Virus record (IMG/VR): IMGVR_UViG_2731957842_000007
Location: 1-18,628 of that record
DNA length: 18,628 bases
Strand: one strand, 5' to 3'
Source of the DNA: a virus
Lineage: Duplodnaviria; Heunggongvirae; Uroviricota; Caudoviricetes
The position numbers and the translations under genes are program-made. Shown in pieces: positions 2,420 through 18,628 of the stretch; position 1 is the stretch's first letter, and each line of letters begins with the position of its first letter. The notes below the pieces were generated by a model. That model made no database searches, was not told the DNA's origin, and saw nothing but the letters and a program-made list of their open reading frames with translations.

Positions 2420-4414
2420 TTATTCAGCCTTAGCAAAAGTGGTCATAGTTGTTCCACTGAAAGTGAATGACCTGTCTGTAAGAGTAACATCCTGAATAGC
2501 AAAGTAATCGCCAACACCAGCGCCATTTACATAAAACTCGAATATCTCAGATGTATTTTCCGGAATAATATTATTAGCAATATAACACGTAGATAAAGAA
2601 CCATTTGTTGATGGTAAAGTTCCAAATAGCGTTGCATCCGATGCAGCATATATCGAACTGCTTAAATAAATATTTATATCAACATTACTCTCATAAGTAA
2701 CAATTAAGTACACCCGGTCGTTAACCTTCCACCCTCTGTCTTTTATCTTAGTATTAAGTGATAGCTTGTTAGAACTAGGGGTCGTTACGGTATTAATGGT
2801 TATTTTTGCTCCTATTGAGTTGTATCTGCTTCTGGTTACTGTATTACCAGTATTGTTCATTGTATAAAGGATTGCTCTGCTTTCTGCAAACGTCCTCATA
2901 TTAATCTTGCCTAAACAATCTCCTTCCATAACTTGTGGGCCAGACACAGTTGCACCAATATAACAATTAGTAAATACAGCATGAGCCCTGTTGTCAGTGC
3001 TTGATGCAAGTAATGAAAGTTTAAAGTTGCCCTGATCTGCAATCCAGCAACTATCAACCTTAACTACAGCATCATTGTCAAGAACAACAAACCTTCCTCC
3101 CTCATTGTAATATCCTACAAAAGCATTTACACCGCTTATTTTTACTACTCCATCTGGAACCGTAAAGATATCGCCTTGTATCGCTTCGCCATAGTACCCG
3201 CCAACAATATTGGTCACTCTGGTATTTAAGTACATGCCATGCCCAATGCCGAACTCAAGGTCACATCCAATTAAGCTTAAACCTTCAATAGGGGAAGTAC
3301 CAGAAGCATAAAAGGCATATTCACCGACCTTATTTGATGCAAATCCACAGTTATTGAACGTTACGCGGTTGTTAGCCCCAGCAAGGTGAACTCCGCGATT
3401 TGGCGCAGGAACAAAAGAACAGCAATCATAGGTATTAAGCCAGTCGTTTATAGTATAGAAGTTCGCCACCACGCCATTGATGAAACGACAATTATGGGTT
3501 CTTCCTAGGTGAACATATTGAATTCGGCAAGCATAGTTGGCGATGTTGTTCCCATCAACTGTAACGTGAGAGATAGATGTGCTACGTCTTATAGAGTCAG
3601 TTTCGTAGTACATGTTGACAACTGTCTCTCCAGTGAACCCACTCCCCGCAATAATGAATGACTTCTCAACGCCATCCCCGAATAGGTCAACAGTGCCTAT
3701 TGTTAAATCAACTGGTGACTTAACATAGTAAGTTCCTGCAGGGACAAACAGCCTCTTTCCTGCCGATAAAGCAACTGCTGCAGCAGCATTAAAGCTAGCT
3801 GAGTTATCTGCCGCTGGATCACCAGTAATGGGGAAAAATTGAGCAACAGAAATATAATCTGCTACCGTCACTTCGTACCATGGCAAAGCAGGAGATGACG
3901 GAAGAGTGCCACTACCACCGGTGTAGATTTTATTATTATACCACCACCAGTTATCAACATTAGATAACACCCCCTCCTGCCACACCCCCCCTAACGAGAA
4001 ATCAAGACCGTAAGAAGTAGCTATCTGACTTAATGATAATGTTGCTCCTCTGTCAGAAGCTAATTCTTGCCTTAATTGGTCAGGGTCATACTTCAGCACA
4101 TTAGGAAAATAGAACTGCTGTGCACCATACGCATCATAAACAGCCATAGAATGGCCTTGCACAGTTACGAACTTGGCAATCTGTCCGTTATATACCGGAT
4201 ATCCAGCAGCGTTAATGATGATTGGTTGCGAAACAGGAACGTGAGAGCCGTCTTCGTTCTCCACATAAACCTGAATCTGGTTTTCAGGATTTACAGGGTC
4301 AGTGTCAATTTTACCGATATAAATTTTGCCATTGGCTACGGCTTTAAAAGAACGAGCCATAGTGAAGAGTTGCGAAGGCATGCTTACCACAACATTTGCG
4401 GTGATATCTGACAT
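2420..4414 (-). CDS. Tailspike protein: P22-like N-terminal head-binding domain fused to a divergent C-terminal receptor-binding domain (probable glycan depolymerase)
   Basis: N-terminus [60 protein letters not shown] matches the conserved head-binding domain of P22 gp9-type tailspikes; the remainder has no P22 gp9 similarity I can see. Start placed at ATG 4414 (GGAG 9 nt upstream) rather than the ORF-track start at 4462. Confidence 0.85.
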
Positions 4415-9913: not shown

Positions 9914-10758
9914 TGCTCCGCGATTATCTTGATGGTTGTGGCAGTAAACGCCGCACCATTCGACTGAATGGTTAACGTGCTGCCATTTGTGGCAAGAAAG
10001 CCGTCTTTATCCACGCTGAAGAACGTAGCTAACAAGATGTTATCGGTTGTTGTCGCCGAGTTGCGACTGCTTACCAGTGTGTCAGGAACAGAGCCGGAAA
10101 AGGTTAGCTGCATTGACCTGTTTGCGGTTCCGCTGGGCCACGTCCCGACAATCGACAGCTTGAAGAACAGGGTTTTGTTCTCGTTGAACACAACCATCTT
10201 GTTGTTAACGGTGTCGAAGAATGGTGCCAACGAGCCGGATGACGGCGTGAGCGTTTTCAGCAGGCTAACAAGGTTGGTCGGCGCTGTCGGGATGGTTACT
10301 GATACGCCAGAGTAAACAACCTCTGACTTCTTGCGTGTGGTTGCATACTCCAGAGCATCAATGCGCGTTTCATGGTCTGAAACCTGCGACTCCAGCGACT
10401 GAAGTCTGGTATCAAGCGACGCAATATCGCTTTCATTCTGAGTGATTCGTGTTTCATGTTCCTGAAGAGTTGATTCTGCCTGACTGATTCGCTCCTCATG
10501 ATTAACAAGCGTTGCTTCCGCAGCAGAAATTCGCTGCTCATGGTCAGCGAGAATCACATCCTGCTCATCGTTCCTGACTTGTGCGTCATAAGCGCCCTGT
10601 CCGGCCTCGTTGGCCTTGTTAGCCACGTTACCAACATCAGTGCCCTGTGCGATAACGTAAAGCAGATACGACTGCGAGAAGATATTGCGTGGAAGGACTG
10701 ATGTGTCGAGCCGTGTAGCCTGAATGATTACCGGCACATTGAGATTCGAATCCGCCAT
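9910..10758 (-). CDS. Tail needle protein, P22 gp26-like, with a divergent C-terminal knob domain, 282 aa
   Basis: N-terminus [43 protein letters not shown] matches the conserved gp26 N-terminal domain; central heptad-like repeats ([43 protein letters not shown]) fit the trimeric coiled-coil needle; C-terminal 120 aa differ from P22. Confidence 0.8.
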
Positions 10759-11552
10759 TACTCAATCCTTATCTGAGCGCCAGACAGAGTGACAGGTGAC
10801 TTCGTGATAACGCGCAATTTGAAACCAATGTTTTTCCTGATGCGCCCTACTTTCTTCCACAAAACGCGTTTGTCGTAAACGAACGGTTCATTCTGCTCAA
10901 TCATCTGCTCACGCCCGTAATTGATGCCGTCAGTGGTTGCAGAGAGGAACAGGCGGTCGGCGTACTGAGCTACGCCAGTGGATGATTCCACCTCCAGATC
11001 GAAGCATCTGGCGTTATCCGCTTTGAACAGTGGAGTAAACAGCAGGTGTTCCTGTTGCTTGTCGTACTGGCTGCTGATATCGAACTGCAATTTCCCGGTC
11101 ACGGACTCCAGCTTATCGCCGCACGTTATCTGATTGCCTTCATAAATGAAGTCGATAGCGCGGTACACATCGTCATACAGGCCTGTTTTCAACACACACC
11201 ATTGCGGACCATTGGCGCTTGAAGATGCGTCGTACACGAGGACGTGGCGCGGAAGGTGGATAATCAGCAGTTCATGCGCATCAAATCGCAGCGATTCCAT
11301 CACACCATCAGCCAGTTCATCAGCAGTGTAGGAGCGAAGAATTTTCTCAATGCTCGCGCTGGCGATTGGTGATACCTGACCTGATCCGATGATGTATACA
11401 GACGGCGCACCCGTTGCCGGATTGCTGATAAACGCATACGAATCAGCGAATGGCGTTTTGCAGTAAGTTCCGGCAATGCCTTTCTGCACCATCAGCGATG
11501 GTTGTGCGACATACAAAGCGGCACCATCGGAGGTCAACATGACAGTAGTCAT
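10758..11552 (-). pseudogene. 5'-truncated gp10-like tail accessory gene (C-terminal 264 codons only), at the deletion junction
   Basis: Occupies the gp10 position upstream of gp26; P22 gp10 is about 470 aa but this ORF is 264 aa. The codon immediately upstream of its ATG (11553-11555 on the minus strand) is TAA, and its first codons are antisense to the start of the N-like gene. Confidence 0.6.
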
Positions 11553-11838
11553 TACATATCTGGCTGACGATAACGCCAGAAATCGCCGCAGAGCACGCAG
11601 ACAGGCTCAACGTGAACAGGCAATGCAAGAGCAGCGACTGGCGCGAAAAATTGCGCTAAAGCTCTCTGGTTGCGTCAGAGCAGATAAAGCAGCATCACTC
11701 GGAAGCCTTCGCTGCAAGAAGGCAGAAGAAGTCGAGCGTAAACAGAATCGTATTTACTACCGCAAGCCACGCAGTGAAATGGGTGTGACTTGCTCAGGCC
11801 GCCAGAAAATGAAATTAGGCAGCAAACCACTTATTTGA
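11539..11838 (+). CDS. N-like transcription antiterminator with an arginine-rich motif, 99 aa
   Basis: MTVVITYLADDNARNRRRARRQAQREQ resembles the N-terminal arginine-rich RNA-binding motifs of lambda N and P22 gp24 (which begins MTVITY). GGAGG 5 nt upstream of ATG 11539; first gene of the rightward operon. ORF-track start 11476 rejected. Confidence 0.55.
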   Translation: MTVVITYLADDNARNRRRARRQAQREQAMQEQRLARKIALKLSGCVRADKAASLGSLRCKKAEEVERKQNRIYYRKPRSEMGVTCSGRQKMKLGSKPLI

Positions 11839-11846
11839 GGTGAGAT

Positions 11847-12317
11847 ATGACAAAATCATGGAGCGTACCTTTTCCTGAATCAGAAACTGAACATGATGGA
11901 ATGCCTGTTTTCTGGAGATTCCAGGCGACAGTTGAAGAAGATGGGATAAAAATATTCGCACTTCAATATATAGCTTTTCATCAGACAGAGCATTATGCAT
12001 GGTTGGTTCCTGCGCATTGGATTGTTAATTTTAAACCAGCACCAAATCAGTGGTTACAGGAATGGAAACAAAGGAGAAATAGATATGCAATTAAGAAAGT
12101 AGCAAAAAATGCAGAAAGATCTTTTGCATTCCCAACGAAGAAACTTGCCATTGAGAGTTTATTGCGCCGGAAGAAATACCATTTAATGAGAATCAAACAA
12201 GATTTGGCTGTTGTATCAACTCTTGTTGATGGGATGAAGAATATTGATACATCAACACCAGATATTGAATATAACTTTGGACACAACCAAGAAACAGAAA
12301 ATTGGGTATTCTACTAG
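11847..12317 (+). CDS. Hypothetical protein, 156 aa, in a visibly A+T-rich segment; moron candidate
   Basis: RBS GAGGTGAG before ATG 11847; Trp- and Lys-rich soluble protein with no family I recognise; followed immediately by a terminator. Confidence 0.6.
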   Translation: MTKSWSVPFPESETEHDGMPVFWRFQATVEEDGIKIFALQYIAFHQTEHYAWLVPAHWIVNFKPAPNQWLQEWKQRRNRYAIKKVAKNAERSFAFPTKKLAIESLLRRKKYHLMRIKQDLAVVSTLVDGMKNIDTSTPDIEYNFGHNQETENWVFY

Positions 12318-12341
12318 GCCGCATAGTCGGCCTTTATTTTT
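12317..12341 (+). terminator. Rho-independent terminator after the 156 aa ORF
   Basis: Stem GGCCG (12317-12321), loop CATAGT, stem CGGCC (12328-12332), followed by TTTATTTTT. Confidence 0.6.
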
Positions 12342-12363
12342 GGCATAAACAACAGAGGCTAAC

Positions 12364-12660
12364 ATGGAATTTAAAGGTACTGAAGGTAAGTGGGAAATAA
12401 TGATGGATGGCGATGAGATTAAAATCATCCAGGCAGACTCACTTGAAAATGGCGCAGGCTGGCGTTCGTATATTGCAATCTGTGAGGAAGTTCAATGTAT
12501 TGAAGATGCCAATCTAATAGCGGCAGCACCTGACCTTCTCGAAGCACTTCAGTTATTACTTAAGCAATCCAAAAATAGAACAACGACAACATATCCAGAA
12601 TGGTATGGAGCTGTTAATAAAGGTCTTGCAGCAATCAGCAAGGCTCTGGGAGGTGAATGA
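12364..12660 (+). CDS. Hypothetical protein, 98 aa
   Basis: ORF with an AGAGG RBS-like element upstream; its stop overlaps the start of the next ORF (ATGA), indicating translational coupling. Confidence 0.5.
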   Translation: MEFKGTEGKWEIMMDGDEIKIIQADSLENGAGWRSYIAICEEVQCIEDANLIAAAPDLLEALQLLLKQSKNRTTTTYPEWYGAVNKGLAAISKALGGE

Positions 12661-12869
12661 TGTGCGAGTTTTATGAAGCAGATATCAAACGCCCAGAAAT
12701 GGCAAGTGATGCGACATTACGTGATTACTTCGCTGCTAAGGCTATGGCAGCAATAGTGCGCAGATGGGACGGACATTCCTTTGGCGGTGGACAGAATTCA
12801 CCACAGTACAAAGAATTAGCAGATGATGCCTACTTTATTGCTGATGCCATGCTCAAAGCTCGCGAATAA
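12657..12869 (+). CDS. Hypothetical protein, 70 aa, translationally coupled to the upstream 98 aa ORF
   Basis: ATGA start/stop overlap at 12657-12660; no recognisable family. Confidence 0.45.
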   Translation: MMCEFYEADIKRPEMASDATLRDYFAAKAMAAIVRRWDGHSFGGGQNSPQYKELADDAYFIADAMLKARE

Positions 12870-12964
12870 GCACTGTGTATTCATTCCAACGAGTGAATAC
12901 ACGGAGCAATGTCGCTCGTAACTAAACAGGAGCCGACTTGTTCTGATTATTGGAAATCTTCTTT

Positions 12965-12992
12965 GCCCTCCAGTGTGAGGGCAATTTTTTTT
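12965..12992 (+). terminator. Rho-independent terminator upstream of the coiled-coil gene
   Basis: Stem GCCCTC (12965-12970), loop CAGTGT, stem GAGGGC (12977-12982), followed by AATTTTTTTTT. Confidence 0.55.
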
Positions 12993-13004
12993 GATGGAGG
13001 ATAT

Positions 13005-13973
13005 ATGAGTGAAGTAACAGATTTAGTTGTTATTGAAAAAGCAAATGCAATGACTGTATTTCAGTCTGCCGACCAGATTGAAGAAATCCTTCAAAAGGTA
13101 GAACGTGAAGTTATGTCCTTTGTGCCTGATATCACAACGGCAAAGGGCAGAAAGGAGGTCGCTTCTCTGGCGTATAAAGTTGCGCAGACGAAAACATATC
13201 TCGATGGTCTTGGCAAAGACCTTGTTGCTGAACTGAAGGAAATTCCAAAGCTAATTGATGCCAACCGCAAGACAGTGCGCGATCGCCTTGATGAACTGAA
13301 AGCCAAGGCACGCCAGCCTCTTACTGATTATGAAGAGGAACAGGCGCGGATTAAAGCTGAAGAAGAAGCTAAGGCAGCAGCTGAAGCTCTCGCAAAGCAA
13401 ATTGAGTCTGACCATGAAATAGCGATTTTGATGGATCGCGAATTTGACCGCCAAAGAGAAGAGGCAAGACTCAAAGCGGAGCAGGAAAAGCGAGAGCATG
13501 AAGAACGCTTAAAAAGAGAAGCTGAAGAGAAAGCCAGAGCTGAAGCCGAAGCAAAGGCAAAAGCCGAAATTGAAGCAGCAGCAAGGCGAGAAGCAGAAGC
13601 TAAGGCCGCAGCGGAACGTGCAGAGCGTGAACGCATTGAAGCCGAGCAACGAGCACAGCGCGAAGCAAAAGAGGCAGCAGAACGAGCTGAAAGAGAAAAG
13701 CAGGCAGCAATTGAAGCAGAACGCAGAAAAGCACAGGAGGAGGCTGAACGAATCCGTCGCGAGGTTGAAGCAAAAGAGCAAGCCAGAATAGCAGAAGAAA
13801 AAAGAATCAAGGAAGAAGAAGAGCGTAGAGCAAAGGATAAAGCTCACCGGAAAGAAGTAAATAACAAAATACTTGCTGACCTTATCAAGGTTGGTGCATC
13901 AGAAGATGTTGCTAAAAATATCATAACAGCCATCGTAAAAGGCGAAGTATTCGCAACAAAAATAACCTACTAA
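13005..13973 (+). CDS. Hypothetical coiled-coil protein with a long Glu/Ala/Lys/Arg-rich repetitive central region, 322 aa
   Basis: ATG 13005 preceded by GGAGG; the ORF-track start 12909 lies upstream of the terminator and is rejected. Central 200 aa are AEAKA/EAERR-type repeats; globular N- and C-terminal segments. Confidence 0.6.
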   Translation: MSEVTDLVVIEKANAMTVFQSADQIEEILQKVEREVMSFVPDITTAKGRKEVASLAYKVAQTKTYLDGLGKDLVAELKEIPKLIDANRKTVRDRLDELKAKARQPLTDYEEEQARIKAEEEAKAAAEALAKQIESDHEIAILMDREFDRQREEARLKAEQEKREHEERLKREAEEKARAEAEAKAKAEIEAAARREAEAKAAAERAERERIEAEQRAQREAKEAAERAEREKQAAIEAERRKAQEEAERIRREVEAKEQARIAEEKRIKEEEERRAKDKAHRKEVNNKILADLIKVGASEDVAKNIITAIVKGEVFATKITY

Positions 13974-13997
13974 TAAAACCAACATAAGGAACCACCC

Positions 13998-14129
13998 ATG
14001 ATTTACGCAATCGCGGGAGGAGCTCGCATGGGTGCCTTCCAACTAAATGAATCTTTACTTGAACGAATCACCCGTAAATTACGTGACGGATGGAAAAGAG
14101 TTGAGGTCTTATTATGCGCAATGAAATAG
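13998..14129 (+). CDS. cIII-like small protein (FtsH protease inhibitor family), 43 aa
   Basis: MIYAIAGG...ESLLERITRKLRDGWKR matches the conserved core of lambda CIII as I recall it; AAGGA RBS upstream; located upstream of erf as in lambdoid PL operons. Confidence 0.5.
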   Translation: MIYAIAGGARMGAFQLNESLLERITRKLRDGWKRVEVLLCAMK

Positions 14130-14266
14130 CCATCAATCACCAGATGCTTCGTGCTGCACAGAACAAAGCAGTAATAGCCAGATTTATTGGTGATTCAAAA
14201 ATGTGGCTTGAAGCAAATAAAGCGATGAAATCAGCTATCAACCTTCCGTGGTATCGCAGGAAATGA
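14114..14266 (+). CDS. Kil-like small protein (putative), 50 aa
   Basis: IARFIGDSKMWLEANKAMK resembles the lambda Kil family from memory; start overlaps the cIII-like ORF, and its stop overlaps the next start. Confidence 0.35.
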   Translation: MRNEIAINHQMLRAAQNKAVIARFIGDSKMWLEANKAMKSAINLPWYRRK

Positions 14267-14421
14267 GTTTCACAGATAACTGGTCAGACGAAGAATTCAT
14301 TCGTCAGATGAAAGAATTAATCGGTAACGAAGGAGATATTCATGTCACTTGCAACCACAGTGAAGGAGAGCAAGTTACAGAGACGCATGTACACGCAGAA
14401 AGCTCTCTGGTATCGCCATAA
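14263..14421 (+). CDS. Hypothetical small protein, 52 aa
   Basis: Chained by ATGA overlap to the upstream small ORF and lying directly upstream of erf; no family recognised. Confidence 0.3.
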   Translation: MSFTDNWSDEEFIRQMKELIGNEGDIHVTCNHSEGEQVTETHVHAESSLVSP

Positions 14422-14522
14422 TGGTGACCGCGAAGGAATGCGGGTATGCCTTAATTTGTCCCGAGTCGAAGTATTAAATCAGCGTTATTTCCTTGGGCCG
14501 TGTCCATTCTGAGAACAATCAT

Positions 14523-15128
14523 ATGAGCAAAGAATTTTACGCAAGACTGGCAGCTATTCAGGAGAATCTGAACGCGCCAAAGAATCAGTACAACTCATTC
14601 GGCAAATATAAATACAGAAGCTGCGAAGATATTCTTGAAGGCGTTAAGCCGTTACTGAATGGTCTGTTTTTATCAATCAGCGATGAAGTTGTGTTGATTG
14701 GTGATCGGTATTACGTGAAAGCCACGGCAACTATTACCGATGGCGAAAACAGTCATACGGCAACTGCTCTTGCACGAGAGGAAGAAAGCAAGAAAGGAAT
14801 GGATTCTGCACAAGTTACTGGAGCTACAAGCTCTTATGCGCGCAAGTATTGCCTCAATGGTTTGTTCGGCATTGATGATGCGAAAGATGCAGATACCGAC
14901 GAACATAAACATCAGCAGAACGCAGCAGCAAAGCAATCAAAACCATCACCTACACCTGAACAGGTTCTAAAAGCATTCACTGACGCAGCAATGCAAAAAA
15001 ACACCGTGGAAGAGCTTAAACAGGCGTTCGCCAAAGCGTGGAAGATGCTCGAAGGAACACCGGAGCAGCACAAAGCGCAGGACGTTTACAACATCAGACG
15101 AGACGAATTAGAAGGAGCTGCTGCTTAA
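14523..15128 (+). CDS. erf: Erf-family single-strand annealing recombinase, 201 aa
   Basis: MSKEFYARLAAIQENLNAPKNQYNSFGKYKYRSCEDILEGVKPLLNGLFLSISDEVVLIGDRYYVKATATITDGENSHTA matches P22 Erf as I recall it. ORF-track TTG start at 14493 rejected in favour of ATG 14523. Confidence 0.85.
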   Translation: MSKEFYARLAAIQENLNAPKNQYNSFGKYKYRSCEDILEGVKPLLNGLFLSISDEVVLIGDRYYVKATATITDGENSHTATALAREEESKKGMDSAQVTGATSSYARKYCLNGLFGIDDAKDADTDEHKHQQNAAAKQSKPSPTPEQVLKAFTDAAMQKNTVEELKQAFAKAWKMLEGTPEQHKAQDVYNIRRDELEGAAA

Positions 15129-15511
15129 TGGCACATTCGATTACTGTAAGACTAAACAAGCCCGCAAGAGAGTTTCAGGCCGGGGAAAATATCGGATTCA
15201 ACATCCGTGCTGGCGTTCAGTATTACGATCGCCAGACAAAAAAGAAAGAATGGACAAACTACAGCGCCGTTGTATTTGCCAAGCCGGGAGCGCAAGCGGA
15301 TTACTACCGTAGTGTTCTTGTTGAAGGTGGCATTGTGGAAATTACCGGAGAAAACATCAGGGTTGATGTTTATCAGGGGCAAAATGGTCAATCAATCACT
15401 CTTGAATTACTGAATGCAAAGATTGGATTTGCAACTTCAGGAAACAGCCAACAGCAGCAAAGTAGCAATCATCAAAATCATCCTGAATACGACGATTCAA
15501 TCCCCTTCTAG
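15128..15511 (+). CDS. SSB-like single-stranded DNA-binding protein with an acidic C-terminal ...DDSIPF tail, 127 aa
   Basis: ATG overlaps the erf stop (TAATG); the C-terminus EYDDSIPF matches the conserved SSB tail motif (DDDIPF); the N-terminal region is compatible with an OB fold. ORF-track start 15038 rejected. Confidence 0.6.
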   Translation: MAHSITVRLNKPAREFQAGENIGFNIRAGVQYYDRQTKKKEWTNYSAVVFAKPGAQADYYRSVLVEGGIVEITGENIRVDVYQGQNGQSITLELLNAKIGFATSGNSQQQQSSNHQNHPEYDDSIPF

Positions 15512-15534
15512 ATTAGCAAAATAAGGATTCCATT

Positions 15535-15828
15535 ATGCCAGCGCCTCTGTATGGTGCGGATGACCCGCGCCGCTGTTCCGGCAATTCCGTATCGGAGGTG
15601 CTGGATAAATTCAGGAAAAACTACGACCTGATAATGTCTCTACCGCAGGAAACGAAAGAGGAAAAGGAATTTCGCCATTGTATATGGCTTGCAGAGAAAG
15701 AAGAACGCGAGCGAATTTACCAGACATCAATCCGCCCATTCCGCAAAGCCACATATACCCACTTCCCTGAAATTGACCCGCGCCTGCGTAATTACCGCTC
15801 ACGCTATGGCGCTATCAGTAATGACTGA
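15535..15828 (+). CDS. Hypothetical protein, 97 aa
   Basis: ORF with an AAGGA RBS-like element upstream of ATG 15535; no family recognised. Confidence 0.45.
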
Positions 15829-15838
15829 GGAATTTACC

Positions 15839-16003
15839 ATGAGAGGACTTGCATACAATCCCGGCATTCTTCCGGCAGAAATGATTATTCGCCAACGCGT
15901 AAAGCCAATGCCATCGAGAGAGGAATTGCTTAAGAGAAATTCTTTTCCATCAGTGAATCAAAACAAATATCTGAATGCGATGTTGCGGAGTGGGAAGAAA
16001 TGA
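15839..16003 (+). CDS. Hypothetical small protein, 54 aa (alternative start at 15821)
   Basis: GAGG 8 nt upstream of ATG 15839; its stop overlaps the next start (ATGA at 16000-16003). The 5' part of the ORF-track ORF 15689..16003 overlaps the upstream gene and is rejected. Confidence 0.3.
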
Positions 16004-16476
16004 AACAAATGTCACTAATTGAGATGGATGGATTCCTGAAAGGTAAATGCATCCCCCGAGATTTAAAGGTTAACGAAACAAACGCTGAATATCTGGTGCG
16101 TAAATTTGCTGAAGCGGAGGCCAAGTGCGCGGAGATGGCAGCGGAAAATGCGGGGCTGAAGTCTGGCGCTATGGACGAAATCAAGGTTATCAACCGTGGA
16201 GGGCAGGCATATTGCGTAAAAGATGGAGTGCAAGTTAATCCCATATATGCAAGAGGGTGGAATGATTATCGCGCAAAGTCTATGCAATCAGACACCCCAG
16301 CCACCGATGCTTTCCTGGCTGAAGTCAGGGCTAAGGCGTTTGATGACCTTTGCGCGGCGTTCGTTAAGCACGCGTCGGTGTCCGGGCTGGACGATGGCGA
16401 CTGCGTTACGGTGAAAGAGGCGACTGACGCCCTGCTGCATTGTGCGGAACAGCTTCACAAGGGAGTGCATTCATGA
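16000..16476 (+). CDS. Hypothetical protein, 158 aa
   Basis: Translationally coupled on both sides (ATGA overlaps at 16000 and 16473); no family recognised. Confidence 0.5.
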
Positions 16477-16706
16477 GCAACCTACTACCATGTCCATTCT
16501 GTGGCGGTGCAGCGCACGTTGCCAGCGAAGCAGATCACCCTGAATATGGCTCTGGCGGTCGATTCTATTTCGTTCGATGCGGTACGTGTCGCGCTCAATC
16601 TGGTAGCAAATATGCAGCGCCTGGAAATGACTGCGCGATTTTTTATTCAGAGGTTAGAGCAGAGTGGAATCAACGAGCAAAGGAGGCGAACAGTGAGCAA
16701 GATTGA
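16473..16706 (+). CDS. Lar-family restriction alleviation-like protein, 77 aa
   Basis: [12 protein letters not shown]...CGTC contains the CPFCG-type Cys motif characteristic of Lar-family small proteins; ATG overlaps the upstream stop. ORF-track start 16440 rejected. Confidence 0.5.
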   Translation: MSNLLPCPFCGGAAHVASEADHPEYGSGGRFYFVRCGTCRAQSGSKYAAPGNDCAIFYSEVRAEWNQRAKEANSEQD

Positions 16707-17268
16707 CTATCAGGCACTGCGTGAGGCGGCGCAGAACGCGAAAGATTTAGGTGGGATTAAGAATTACAAGCGAGGCGAGCAAGCTGTTGCCGAATTTGAG
16801 TCCCTGATAACGCCACACATTGTGCTGGCACTGCTGGATGAACGGGAAAGAAACCAGCAATACATCAAACGCCGCGACCAGGAGAACGAGGATATTGCGC
16901 TAACGGTGGGGAAACTGCGTGTTGAGCTGGAAGCCGCAGAGAAGCGCAACGCAAAATTACAAAGCGAGAATGCATACATCCGCAACCGGTACAAAGAACT
17001 GGACCTGTTAATCGGGAAAAACATTCTGGTCATGCAGGCTGCGATTATCGAATGGCAGGCAACTGGCGACGCTAAGAGCGGACTGGCATGGATTTATAAC
17101 ACACTGTTTGGCCCTGGCGAATTGCCGGACGAATCTGAGAAAGATGCTCAGGCCTACTTTAATCGCAAATATGCACCGATTGACGAAAAGCTTATGGAGC
17201 TTCACAAGTGGTTTTGGGAACAAAGTGAAGCCGAGCGCGCCGCCGGCATTCGCATCAAAGGAGAGTGA
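16693..17268 (+). CDS. Hypothetical coiled-coil protein (possibly Ead/Ea22-like), 191 aa, GTG start
   Basis: AGGAGG 6 nt upstream of GTG 16693; the ORF-track start at 16501 would overlap the Lar-like gene for 200 bp and is rejected. Confidence 0.5.
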   Translation: MSKIDYQALREAAQNAKDLGGIKNYKRGEQAVAEFESLITPHIVLALLDERERNQQYIKRRDQENEDIALTVGKLRVELEAAEKRNAKLQSENAYIRNRYKELDLLIGKNILVMQAAIIEWQATGDAKSGLAWIYNTLFGPGELPDESEKDAQAYFNRKYAPIDEKLMELHKWFWEQSEAERAAGIRIKGE

Positions 17269-17269
17269 T

Positions 17270-17920
17270 ATGAGCACTATCACTAAAGAACGTATCGAAT
17301 TGTTCATTAAATCCCCGCTTGAAAACGGACTTACTCGTGGCGAACAAATGGAACTGGCACGAATTGCACTGGCATCACTGGAACGCGAACTGATTCGCCA
17401 CGAGCATGCCAAATGGTCTGACTCCACATTTGGCTGCGTTGGCCCTATTGGTCCGCTGAAACATCTCTCAAAAGAGGCACTGGAAGCCGCAGCCGAACCA
17501 GACGATCTTAGCGAGTGGGCTGATATGCAGTTTCTGTTGTGGGATGCACAGCGCCGTGCTGGCATCAGCGATGCTGAAATTACCGCTGCTATGGAAGATA
17601 AATTGAAGATCAACATGGAGCGCCAGTGGCCTGAGCCAAAAGATGGTGAGCCTCGCTTGCACATTAAAGAACCCGGCAACTATCCGGTAACTCCGGATGG
17701 TTGGATAAGCTGTAGTGAGCGAATGCCTGAAAAGAATCGGAACGTGCTTATTTCGGTGAATTTCGATAGCTCTCTGGTTGAACCGCTAATATGCTCCGCA
17801 CGCTATACCGGAAGCACCTTTCGGCGCGGAGATGCAACGATTAAGCCGGGTAATGGTATTGAGCAAGCAACTCACTGGATGCCGCTACCGGAACCGCCGC
17901 AGGAGGTAAACCGTGGCTAA
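17270..17920 (+). CDS. DUF551-like phage protein, 216 aa
   Basis: AAAGGAGAG RBS, ATG 2 nt after the upstream stop; C-terminus ...PDGWISCSERMPE...THWMPLPEPP resembles the DUF551 signature. ORF-track start 17108 rejected. Confidence 0.55.
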   Translation: MSTITKERIELFIKSPLENGLTRGEQMELARIALASLERELIRHEHAKWSDSTFGCVGPIGPLKHLSKEALEAAAEPDDLSEWADMQFLLWDAQRRAGISDAEITAAMEDKLKINMERQWPEPKDGEPRLHIKEPGNYPVTPDGWISCSERMPEKNRNVLISVNFDSSLVEPLICSARYTGSTFRRGDATIKPGNGIEQATHWMPLPEPPQEVNRG

Positions 17921-17982
17921 CCTGCAACTTGCCGTCAAAGGTGAATAACAATCCTCGCACTCGCGGGGATTTCTTTTATCTG

Positions 17983-18007
17983 AACTCGCTACGGCGAGTT
18001 TTGTTTT
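17983..18007 (+). terminator. Rho-independent terminator
   Basis: Stem AACTCGC (17983-17989), loop TACG, stem GCGAGTT (17994-18000), followed by TTGTTTT. Confidence 0.55.
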
Positions 18008-18019
18008 ATGGAGATGATT

Positions 18020-18319
18020 ATGGCCTGTTCAACATTCAACCCTCTAACGTTACAGAAATACCAGACAGACCCTGAAGATTTATGCTCACTGTGTGGCGGA
18101 AATCATGGCAAAGCCGCCATGATCGAATGTAAGGACAAAATCCACATATGCCTTAATTGCGTTGATGTCCTCGTTGATATCAAAAATGAAAGAGAAGATA
18201 AAAAGCGTAGCGAGGCTATTCGCGCCTTAGATTCATGGATGCGAGATGGGTATAGTGCTGCGCAAATTTATGACTTCGCAATATCAAAAGGCGAAATACC
18301 AGGAGTGCGCATCGAATAA
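18020..18319 (+). CDS. Hypothetical Cys-rich (CxxC...CxxC, putative zinc-binding) small protein, 99 aa
   Basis: GGAG 6 nt upstream of ATG 18020 (alternative in-frame ATGs at 18008 and 18014); motifs CSLCGG and CLNC. Confidence 0.45.
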   Translation: MACSTFNPLTLQKYQTDPEDLCSLCGGNHGKAAMIECKDKIHICLNCVDVLVDIKNEREDKKRSEAIRALDSWMRDGYSAAQIYDFAISKGEIPGVRIE

Positions 18320-18361
18320 GACGTAACCAATATTCGAATTGAAGAACTGAAAGAACACCAA

Positions 18362-18383
18362 GCCGCCTGATGGCGGTTTTTTA
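18362..18383 (+). terminator. Rho-independent terminator upstream of the excisionase gene
   Basis: Stem GCCGCC (18362-18367), loop TGAT, stem GGCGGT (18372-18377), followed by TTTTTTATT. Confidence 0.6.
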
Positions 18384-18392
18384 TTGCCTGAT

Positions 18393-18408
18393 TTGCAGGT
18401 TCGATTCC
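18393..18408 (+). repeat. 16 bp exact copy of the argW T-arm segment (TTGCAGGTTCGATTCC; identical to 1054-1069)
   Basis: Exact 16/16 direct repeat of tRNA positions 1054-1069; the flanks diverge and the T-stem cannot form, so it is a fragment, not a tRNA. Confidence 0.5.
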
Positions 18409-18427
18409 CTATTCGGAGATAGCACTC

Positions 18428-18628
18428 ATGCAACACGAACTACAGCCTGATTCACTGGTTGATTTGAAATTCATCATGGCCGATACTGGCTTCGGTAAAA
18501 CCTTCATCTATGACCGGATTAAGTCCGGCGACCTGCCAAAAGCCAAAGTTATCCACGGGCGAGCAAGATGGTTATATCGTGACCATTGTGAATTCAAAAA
18601 TAAGCTCTTAAGCCGCGCCAATGGGTAA
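18428..18628 (+). CDS. torI: Excisionase / TorI-like recombination directionality factor, 66 aa
   Basis: 66 aa ORF MQHELQPDSLVDLKFIMADTGFGKTFIYDRIKSGDLPKAKVIHGRARW..., recognised as the KplE1 TorI/Xis family; last gene of the rightward operon, at the prophage end opposite int. Confidence 0.75.
   Translation: MQHELQPDSLVDLKFIMADTGFGKTFIYDRIKSGDLPKAKVIHGRARWLYRDHCEFKNKLLSRANG

Follow-up and report, generated by a model that had tools for sequence, protein, structure and literature searches.

A Lar-family gene among the early-left accessory genes of a P22/Sf6-like prophage with a deletion

The prophage and its coupled gene string

The window, that is, the whole stretch of 18,628 nucleotides of DNA that was analysed, is a P22/Sf6-like prophage at argW that carries a deletion. 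The genes and sites around the Lar-family gene, together with those that mark the left end of the prophage, are the following.

1–933: host flank with yfdC (formate/nitrite transporter family)
1009–1083: tRNA-Arg (CCT), at the attachment site
1209–2402: IntS-type integrase gene
16000–16476, + strand: upstream gene (open reading frame) of 158 aa, PHROG 614, named EaE in HF4s, with a TPATDA-type motif; its stop shares an ATGA with the Lar ATG
16473–16706, + strand: Lar-family gene, identified by its open reading frame, Pfam PF14354, PHROG 599, codon-position bias and an identical PGAP gene model
16680–16686, + strand: AAGGAGG ribosome-binding site for the Ead/Ea22 gene, read from the sequence, within the Lar coding sequence and 6 nt before GTG 16693
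16693–17268, + strand: Ead/Ea22-like gene of 191 aa with a GTG start and a 14-nt overlap with the Lar ORF (Pfam PF13935, E 3.1e-21; same start in PGAP)
17270–17920, + strand: dATP/dGTP pyrophosphohydrolase-DUF551 fusion gene, last of the coupled string (Pfam PF04447, E 5.2e-42; PF04448, E 5.9e-22)
17950–18001, + strand: two terminator-like hairpins that end the coupled string (consensus scan)
18008–18319, + strand: Cys-rich ORF of 103 aa, PHROG 3680, 95% identical to Sf6 gp19, with terminator-like hairpins on both sides
18428–18628, + strand: TorI-like excisionase gene, PHROG 66; the equivalent is annotated torI in E. coli and Sf6

The − strand genes encode the tailspike, gp16, gp20, gp7, gp14, gp26 and a fragment of gp10. 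The + strand, from about position 11539, carries an N-like gene, several PHROG families of no assigned function, and genes for a TolA-like coiled-coil protein and for arf-like, Erf and ssb-like proteins; it continues with abc2, DUF2737, the PHROG 614 gene, the Lar gene, Ead/Ea22, the pyrophosphohydrolase-DUF551 gene, the Cys-rich ORF and the TorI-like excisionase. The Lar gene is part of the accessory (ea) region of the early-left operon, with the recombination genes (erf, ssb-like, abc2) on one side of it and the excisionase on the other. Its placement by the initial annotation in an accessory region next to the excisionase was borne out, the gene being upstream of the TorI-like xis. The xis gene itself stands at the opposite end of the prophage from the integrase, where dsdC adjoins in E. 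coli VG48B2, and the order of yfdC, tRNA-Arg and IntS at one end and xis at the other is that of a KplE1/CPS-53-type prophage.

The deletion can be placed precisely. The gp10 fragment (10758–11552, − strand) covers just positions 212–469 of its Pfam model and meets the N-like antiterminator gene (11525–11838, + strand, ATG at 11539). The gp10 and N-like homologies overlap by about 10 bp at 11525–11534, which suggests a microhomology-mediated deletion. This gp10/N-like junction was found in no complete E. coli genome and in no GTDB representative genome. The head, lysis, replication and immunity regions, as well as PL/nutL, are absent from the window; because the prophage has lost PL/nutL and the immunity region, expression of the Lar gene in this particular prophage is uncertain.

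The Lar-family ORF runs on the + strand from the ATG at 16473 to the TGA at 16704–16706 and encodes a product of 77 aa. The initial annotation had described an ORF at 16473–16706 with CPFCGG and CGTC motifs, coupled to both neighbours by ATGA and GTG overlaps, and we found the description exact: CPFCGG occupies residues 7–12 (nt 16491–16508) and CGTC residues 36–39 (nt 16578–16589), the ATGA is shared with the ORF at 16000–16476, and GTG 16693 lies 14 nt inside the Lar ORF. The pyrophosphohydrolase-DUF551 gene starts 1 nt after the Ead stop. Since successive genes overlap or nearly abut, the term coupled string is accurate for these genes. A consensus scan detected neither promoter-like nor terminator-like sites on the + strand between 14296 and 17950. 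When 15500–18628 was searched for repeats, only short, chance-like two-copy matches were obtained; with Rfam, a tRNA alone reached the gathering threshold, and two matches at chance level (E about 0.4–0.8) fell in 15500–18628.

The Lar ORF is a genuine gene. A competing reading of this DNA, that the Lar region is the N-terminal part of a long Ead/EaD protein translated in another frame from GTG 16501 and contains no separate gene, draws on the fact that this frame is open through 17268 in the window and in close relatives, and on the HF4s and Salfasec13b records, in which a long Ead/EaD is annotated from an upstream GTG equivalent to window position 16501. The comparison with divergent homologs speaks against it. 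At 48–73% protein identity, third codon positions of the Lar frame take most of the substitutions (23, 19 and 54 at positions 1, 2 and 3 against a Serratia prophage; 20, 10 and 42 against a metagenomic phage), and the frame is conserved as protein, whereas the two other forward frames of the region contain 2–14 stops in divergent homologs and the long EaD frame is broken by 2–5 of them. Besides, when translation is taken to begin at GTG 16693, which the strong AAGGAGG precedes, the Pfam Ead_Ea22 model sets in at residue 2 of the product, and the three-gene model of PGAP (NCBI) at the 99% identical locus of E. coli H6 has the same starts, with Lar and the short Ead as separate genes. The third-position excess, the stops in the other frames and the start of the Ead_Ea22 model mark the Lar frame as coding and the long EaD start as an over-extension; the long reading frame was rejected on the codon statistics and the stops, and we regard it as extremely improbable. 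The Lar ORF is missing from the annotation of HF4s (2501–2734 of the examined locus), ST104, HK106, UAB_Phi20, Phi75, S149 and Bp96115, and the codon statistics and the PGAP model indicate mis-annotation in phage records without it.

Family membership and predicted fold of the protein

The Lar-family assignment was examined with a Pfam HMM search, the check named beforehand in the initial annotation. PF14354 (Lar_restr_allev) matched residues 3–69 over essentially the full model (positions 2–58 of 58) with 38.5 bits and E 1.4e-9, above the gathering cut-off of 28.6 bits, and PHROG 599, the Lar-like restriction alleviation protein, matched with E 8e-13. We conclude that the window protein is almost certainly a member of the Lar family (PF14354). 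At narrower levels the picture differs. On TIGR03655 of NCBIfam (anti_R_Lar) the protein scored 29.4 bits, below the curated cut-off of 39.6, and four of its relatives scored 30.2–41.7 bits, only one of them (41.7) above the cut-off; the RalR equivalog NF007260, with a cut-off of 113 bits, gave no match at E <= 0.01. For calibration, Rac RalR/Lar scores 53.5 on PF14354, 55.3 on TIGR03655 and 166 on NF007260. The sequence comparisons therefore support a Lar assignment that holds at the Pfam level, not at the level of the narrower NCBIfam Lar family or of the RalR equivalog.

In a pairwise alignment RalR was 26% identical to the window protein over 42 residues. With hhalign, a profile built from 12 close relatives matched RalR residues 3–57 with 96.3% probability and E 1.6e-9, and an exhaustive profile search collected 1739 clusters (at 50% identity) with E <= 0.001. 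The conserved elements of the protein are the following.

16491–16502, + strand: first putative zinc knuckle, C7-P-F-C10, read from the sequence; invariant in alignments of 12 and 113 relatives
16578–16589, + strand: second putative zinc knuckle, C36-G-T-C39; invariant in the alignments of 12 and 113 relatives
16632–16634, + strand: fifth cysteine, C54, in a GNDC motif; at least 90% conserved in the alignments of 12 and 113 relatives
16665–16676, + strand: W65-N-Q-R68 motif of the C-terminal helix, aligned by hhalign to WNKR of RalR

In the WNxR motif, W is invariant among 113 longer relatives and N and R are at least 90% conserved, and 78 of 162 collected proteins contain a G[ND][DE]C motif. 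Relative to RalR, the window protein has an insertion of 9 residues between the knuckles and another, split into 2+7 residues, before the C-terminal helix. The fifth cysteine falls within the latter; RalR and Sf6 gp20 are without it. By sequence, two insertions and a conserved fifth Cys set the protein in a distinct branch of the Lar family. The charge differs as well, the window protein being slightly acidic (pI 5.6, net −2) and RalR basic (pI 9.1, net +5).

An AlphaFold2 model (pLDDT 81) has three beta strands followed by a C-terminal helix at residues 55–76, and the CGTC knuckle forms the turn between strands 30–36 and 42–48. The protein is accordingly modelled as a four-cysteine zinc ribbon with three beta strands and a C-terminal WNxR helix, and it presumably binds zinc. 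The best matches of the model in a library of viral structures, which holds predicted structures only, were predicted Lar proteins (TM 0.82, E 3.7e-5). Among solved structures no significant match was obtained by sequence or by fold, the best PDB hit in Foldseek having E 0.2 and TM about 0.35, and none of the solved structures represents the Lar family. There were non-significant likenesses of residues 21–58 to the zinc site of methionine-R-sulfoxide reductase B (MsrB; PDB 3cez, E 0.5–1.2) and, in Foldseek, to Yippee/Mis18 and the thalidomide-binding domain of cereblon (E 0.3–1, TM about 0.3). All of these probably reflect just the common CxxC...CxxC hairpin.

Half of the 150 WNxR-bearing relatives (75) have at least 60 extra C-terminal residues, mostly without a known domain. 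The 113 longer relatives matched solely the Lar domain, other zinc-finger models or, in 2 cases, DUF551, which is the sole recurrent non-zinc partner domain among Lar relatives. Fusion partners were considered as a guide to function and proved uninformative.

Distribution of the gene and variation of its neighbours

The gene is already known as an ordinary annotated accessory gene of P22-like phages. An identical protein is present in NCBI and UniRef and has been seen on 479 contigs; its UniRef name is 'Lar family restriction alleviation protein', and NCBI gives the same name to the 97% identical P0002. The gene occurs in 47 of 5426 complete E. coli genomes at 95–99.1% DNA identity, and among the matches listed for these genomes the RefSeq name is in every case 'Lar family restriction alleviation protein'. 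Among sequenced phages, HF4s encodes a 100% identical protein, the ORF being unannotated there, and ST104, Phi75, UAB_Phi20, HK106 and Salfasec13b encode proteins of 96–97% identity, the last of which is annotated as Lar-like (Salfasec13b_033). The NCBI proteins P0001 and P0002 and those of HF4s and Salfasec13b have 96–100% protein identity and the same flanking overlaps, with no difference of substance from the window. The RefSeq name is correct; the result confirms routine annotation and in this respect has little practical weight.

The genes that surround Lar vary. It had been proposed that Lar forms an anti-restriction or accessory cassette with the downstream DUF551 and Cys-rich ORFs, and this part of the initial annotation was not supported: on 73 viral contigs with Lar relatives, tblastn found no homolog of the DUF551 segment or of the Cys-rich ORF within 4 kb, nor of xis, abc2 or erf. 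A conserved cassette was rejected after 11 neighbour proteins had been searched by tblastn on these 73 contigs: outside the closest relatives, none of them co-occurred with Lar. A homolog of the upstream 158-aa gene is present on 4 of the 73 contigs and directly abuts Lar in the three closest relatives. After Lar, HF4s has EaD and EaA, Salfasec13b has PHROGs 250, 667 and 625, and a Serratia prophage has an HNH endonuclease gene; in one metagenomic phage the Lar gene is located in the nin region after DnaB, and in E. coli VG48B2 a DUF7446 gene occupies the Lar slot. Within the window itself, two terminator-like hairpins set the Cys-rich ORF apart from the coupled string.

A weak link between the two exists elsewhere: Lar and DUF551 are fused in single proteins, in Vibrio phage K248 (3001–3378 of the examined locus) and in a metagenomic protein (P0026). 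Judging from such sequences, DUF551 seems to be a C-terminal module shared promiscuously among ea-region genes. The C-terminal end of Sf6 gp20, PQEVNHG, resembles the PQEVNRG end of the window DUF551 protein.

The upstream gene provides a second weak link. Its product carries a TPATDAxLAxxRA-type motif (window 16294–16332), and such a motif recurs in the product of the gene that overlaps the start of Lar in three independent enterobacterial contexts (the window, and 3603–4004 and 3574–4008 of two further examined loci), Serratia and metagenome sequences among them; these proteins are otherwise just 24–32% identical. The TPATDA gene and Lar could form a conserved pair, or what is shared could be a module spread by recombination. 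Many ea-region proteins (PHROGs 368, 492 and 614) have this motif module, so the pairing may simply result from mosaic recombination.

Possible functions of the Lar-family protein

The closest functional reference is Rac Lar/RalR of E. coli K-12 (b1348, 64 aa), which belongs to the same Pfam family and shares the CPFCG...CxxC knuckles and the WNxR helix. Its gene has an analogous place, between recT and xisR, as the window Lar gene has between the recombination genes and xis. The two proteins differ in the 9-residue and split 2+7-residue insertions and the fifth Cys of the window protein, and in charge, RalR being basic and the window protein acidic to neutral. It has been reported that EcoKI restriction is stronger once Lar is removed, and the belief is that de novo methylation by the type IA enzyme proceeds faster with Lar or lambda Ral (PMC3177214; PMC12707154). 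A phenotype of alleviated restriction and enhanced modification in type IA systems is known for Rac Lar alone (King and Murray 1995, as cited in PMC4041452 and PMC3177214). RalR is also reported to be a non-specific DNase toxin that is neutralised by the sRNA RalA (PMC4041452), and in phage Bas63 a Lar homolog proved conditionally important, the hosts concerned having no intact type I systems (PMC11482910).

Two other phage proteins are useful for comparison. Sf6 gp20 (2237–2539 of the examined locus) has a Lar domain with 29% identity and is encoded in the ea region of Sf6, a close relative of the prophage. Its gene follows Ead/Ea22, in the slot that the pyrophosphohydrolase-DUF551 gene takes in the window, and not in that of the window Lar gene; the protein is basic, with no fifth Cys and with a C-terminal extension of 45 residues. 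Lambda/P22 Ral possibly produces the same phenotype (type IA alleviation by faster de novo methylation, early from PL) but has no sequence relationship to the window protein. Ral is not known to be a Cys4 protein. Ral and RalR are treated as unrelated in the RalR paper (PMC4041452). The Ral families in Pfam were matched neither by the window protein nor by the 26 other window ORFs that were scanned.

By analogy with these systems, our best explanation overall is that a Lar-family gene stands in an early-left accessory string and most likely acts as an early anti-restriction factor, a combination that we favour by a slight degree over its being wrong. The anti-restriction function of the protein, considered by itself, is tentative and has a little less than an even chance. 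In an intact phage, the accessory string including Lar would presumably be expressed early and made immediately after infection or induction. The window protein would then serve as an early anti-restriction factor in the manner of Rac Lar, and its action, modelled on Rac Lar and similar to that of lambda Ral, would consist of alleviation of EcoKI (type IA) restriction and enhanced de novo methylation of unmodified DNA. It is from this analogy that we infer any action on type I restriction-modification enzymes. An early anti-restriction role is plausible because the window is without a lambda-type Ral. This explanation is weakened by the 26% identity over 42 aa to RalR, the TIGR03655 miss, the insertions, the fifth Cys and the different charge, and also by the reports that RalR is a DNase toxin and that the Bas63 Lar homolog mattered without intact type I systems.

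Two other readings of the protein were considered. In the first, the protein has the Lar zinc-ribbon fold but is directed at something other than a type I restriction-modification enzyme. This could be a different defence system (e.g., type IV restriction) or some other factor of host or phage; the protein could also be a general binding module with variable partner domains. The distinct branch with its two insertions, conserved fifth Cys and near-neutral charge as compared to the basic RalR speaks for this reading, as do the TIGR03655 score below the cut-off, the 75 of 150 WNxR relatives with at least 60 extra C-terminal residues and DUF551 as their sole recurrent non-zinc partner, the Lar paralogs in different slots of the ea and nin regions, and the Bas63 homolog (PMC11482910). 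However, nothing positive points to any alternative target: the PADLOC defence models gave no match for Lar, there is no significant match to a solved structure, and the sole functional data in the Lar family point to type IA restriction-modification. We consider a different target rather unlikely. Homology to RalR, which is reported as a non-specific endonuclease with a toxicity that the sRNA RalA counteracts (PMC4041452), would also allow the window protein to be a RalR-type DNase toxin that cuts DNA non-specifically, either as a type I toxin or as a factor degrading host DNA.

Several results bear on the toxin reading. The RalR equivalog NF007260, on which RalR obtains 166 bits, did not match the window protein. 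RalR has its ralA partner in Rac; with RalR/RalA as the model, an antitoxin sRNA complementary over about 16 nt to the mRNA of the toxin was sought, and anywhere in the window, which is what the search covered (an unrelated sRNA outside it is possible), there was no RalA-like sequence and no antisense match of at least 13 nt to the Lar mRNA. In blastn, the ralA/ralR region of Rac gave only an 18-nt match to the window, in the CPFCG-coding stretch, and a RalA-like antitoxin partner was rejected for the window. Nothing in Rfam corresponds to an antitoxin sRNA. No promoter-like site lies near Lar on either strand, a scan of 11300–18628 having given just three, all below 14300. The protein is slightly acidic, in contrast to RalR, and sequenced phages (HF4s, ST104, HK106 and Salfasec13b) carry it at 96–100% protein identity inside a polycistronic early operon. 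On account of the missing RalA-like sequence, antisense match, Rfam match and promoter, of a protein that is not basic, and of the position of the gene within a phage early operon, we rank the toxin reading low, as quite improbable.

The preferred reading, an early anti-restriction factor, concerns one protein, and the findings also bear on the family as a whole. More than 1700 sequence clusters carry the 'restriction alleviation' label on the strength of one distant protein whose function is disputed (anti-restriction or DNase toxin), and the widespread five-Cys branch bears on how far this label can be trusted. It is conceivable, although in our estimate unlikely, that this branch (GNDC, two insertions, near-neutral charge) differs in function from Rac Lar and is a counter-defence or host-takeover module with a non-type-I target. 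The five-Cys Lar may work with the TPATDA-motif protein, whose gene overlaps its start, and also with DUF551, to which it is fused in Vibrio phage K248 and P0026.

Other genes near Lar have features of their own. As an enzyme of the nucleotide pool encoded among the early-left accessory genes, the pyrophosphohydrolase could itself bear on counter-defence. Residues 80–178 of the Ead/Ea22-like protein, its C-terminal half (window 16930–17226), match the PADLOC model 'DpdH' (PDLC02890) with E 1.8e-36; DpdH is listed under the Dpd 7-deazaguanine DNA-modification defence system, and the match is either a functional link or phage-derived sequence in the model. The Cys-rich ORF has a weak likeness, below threshold, to the C4 zinc finger of ClpX (E 0.015 in Pfam and 0.002 in NCBIfam), and a further hairpin at 18360–18379 on its other side gives it a moron-like arrangement.
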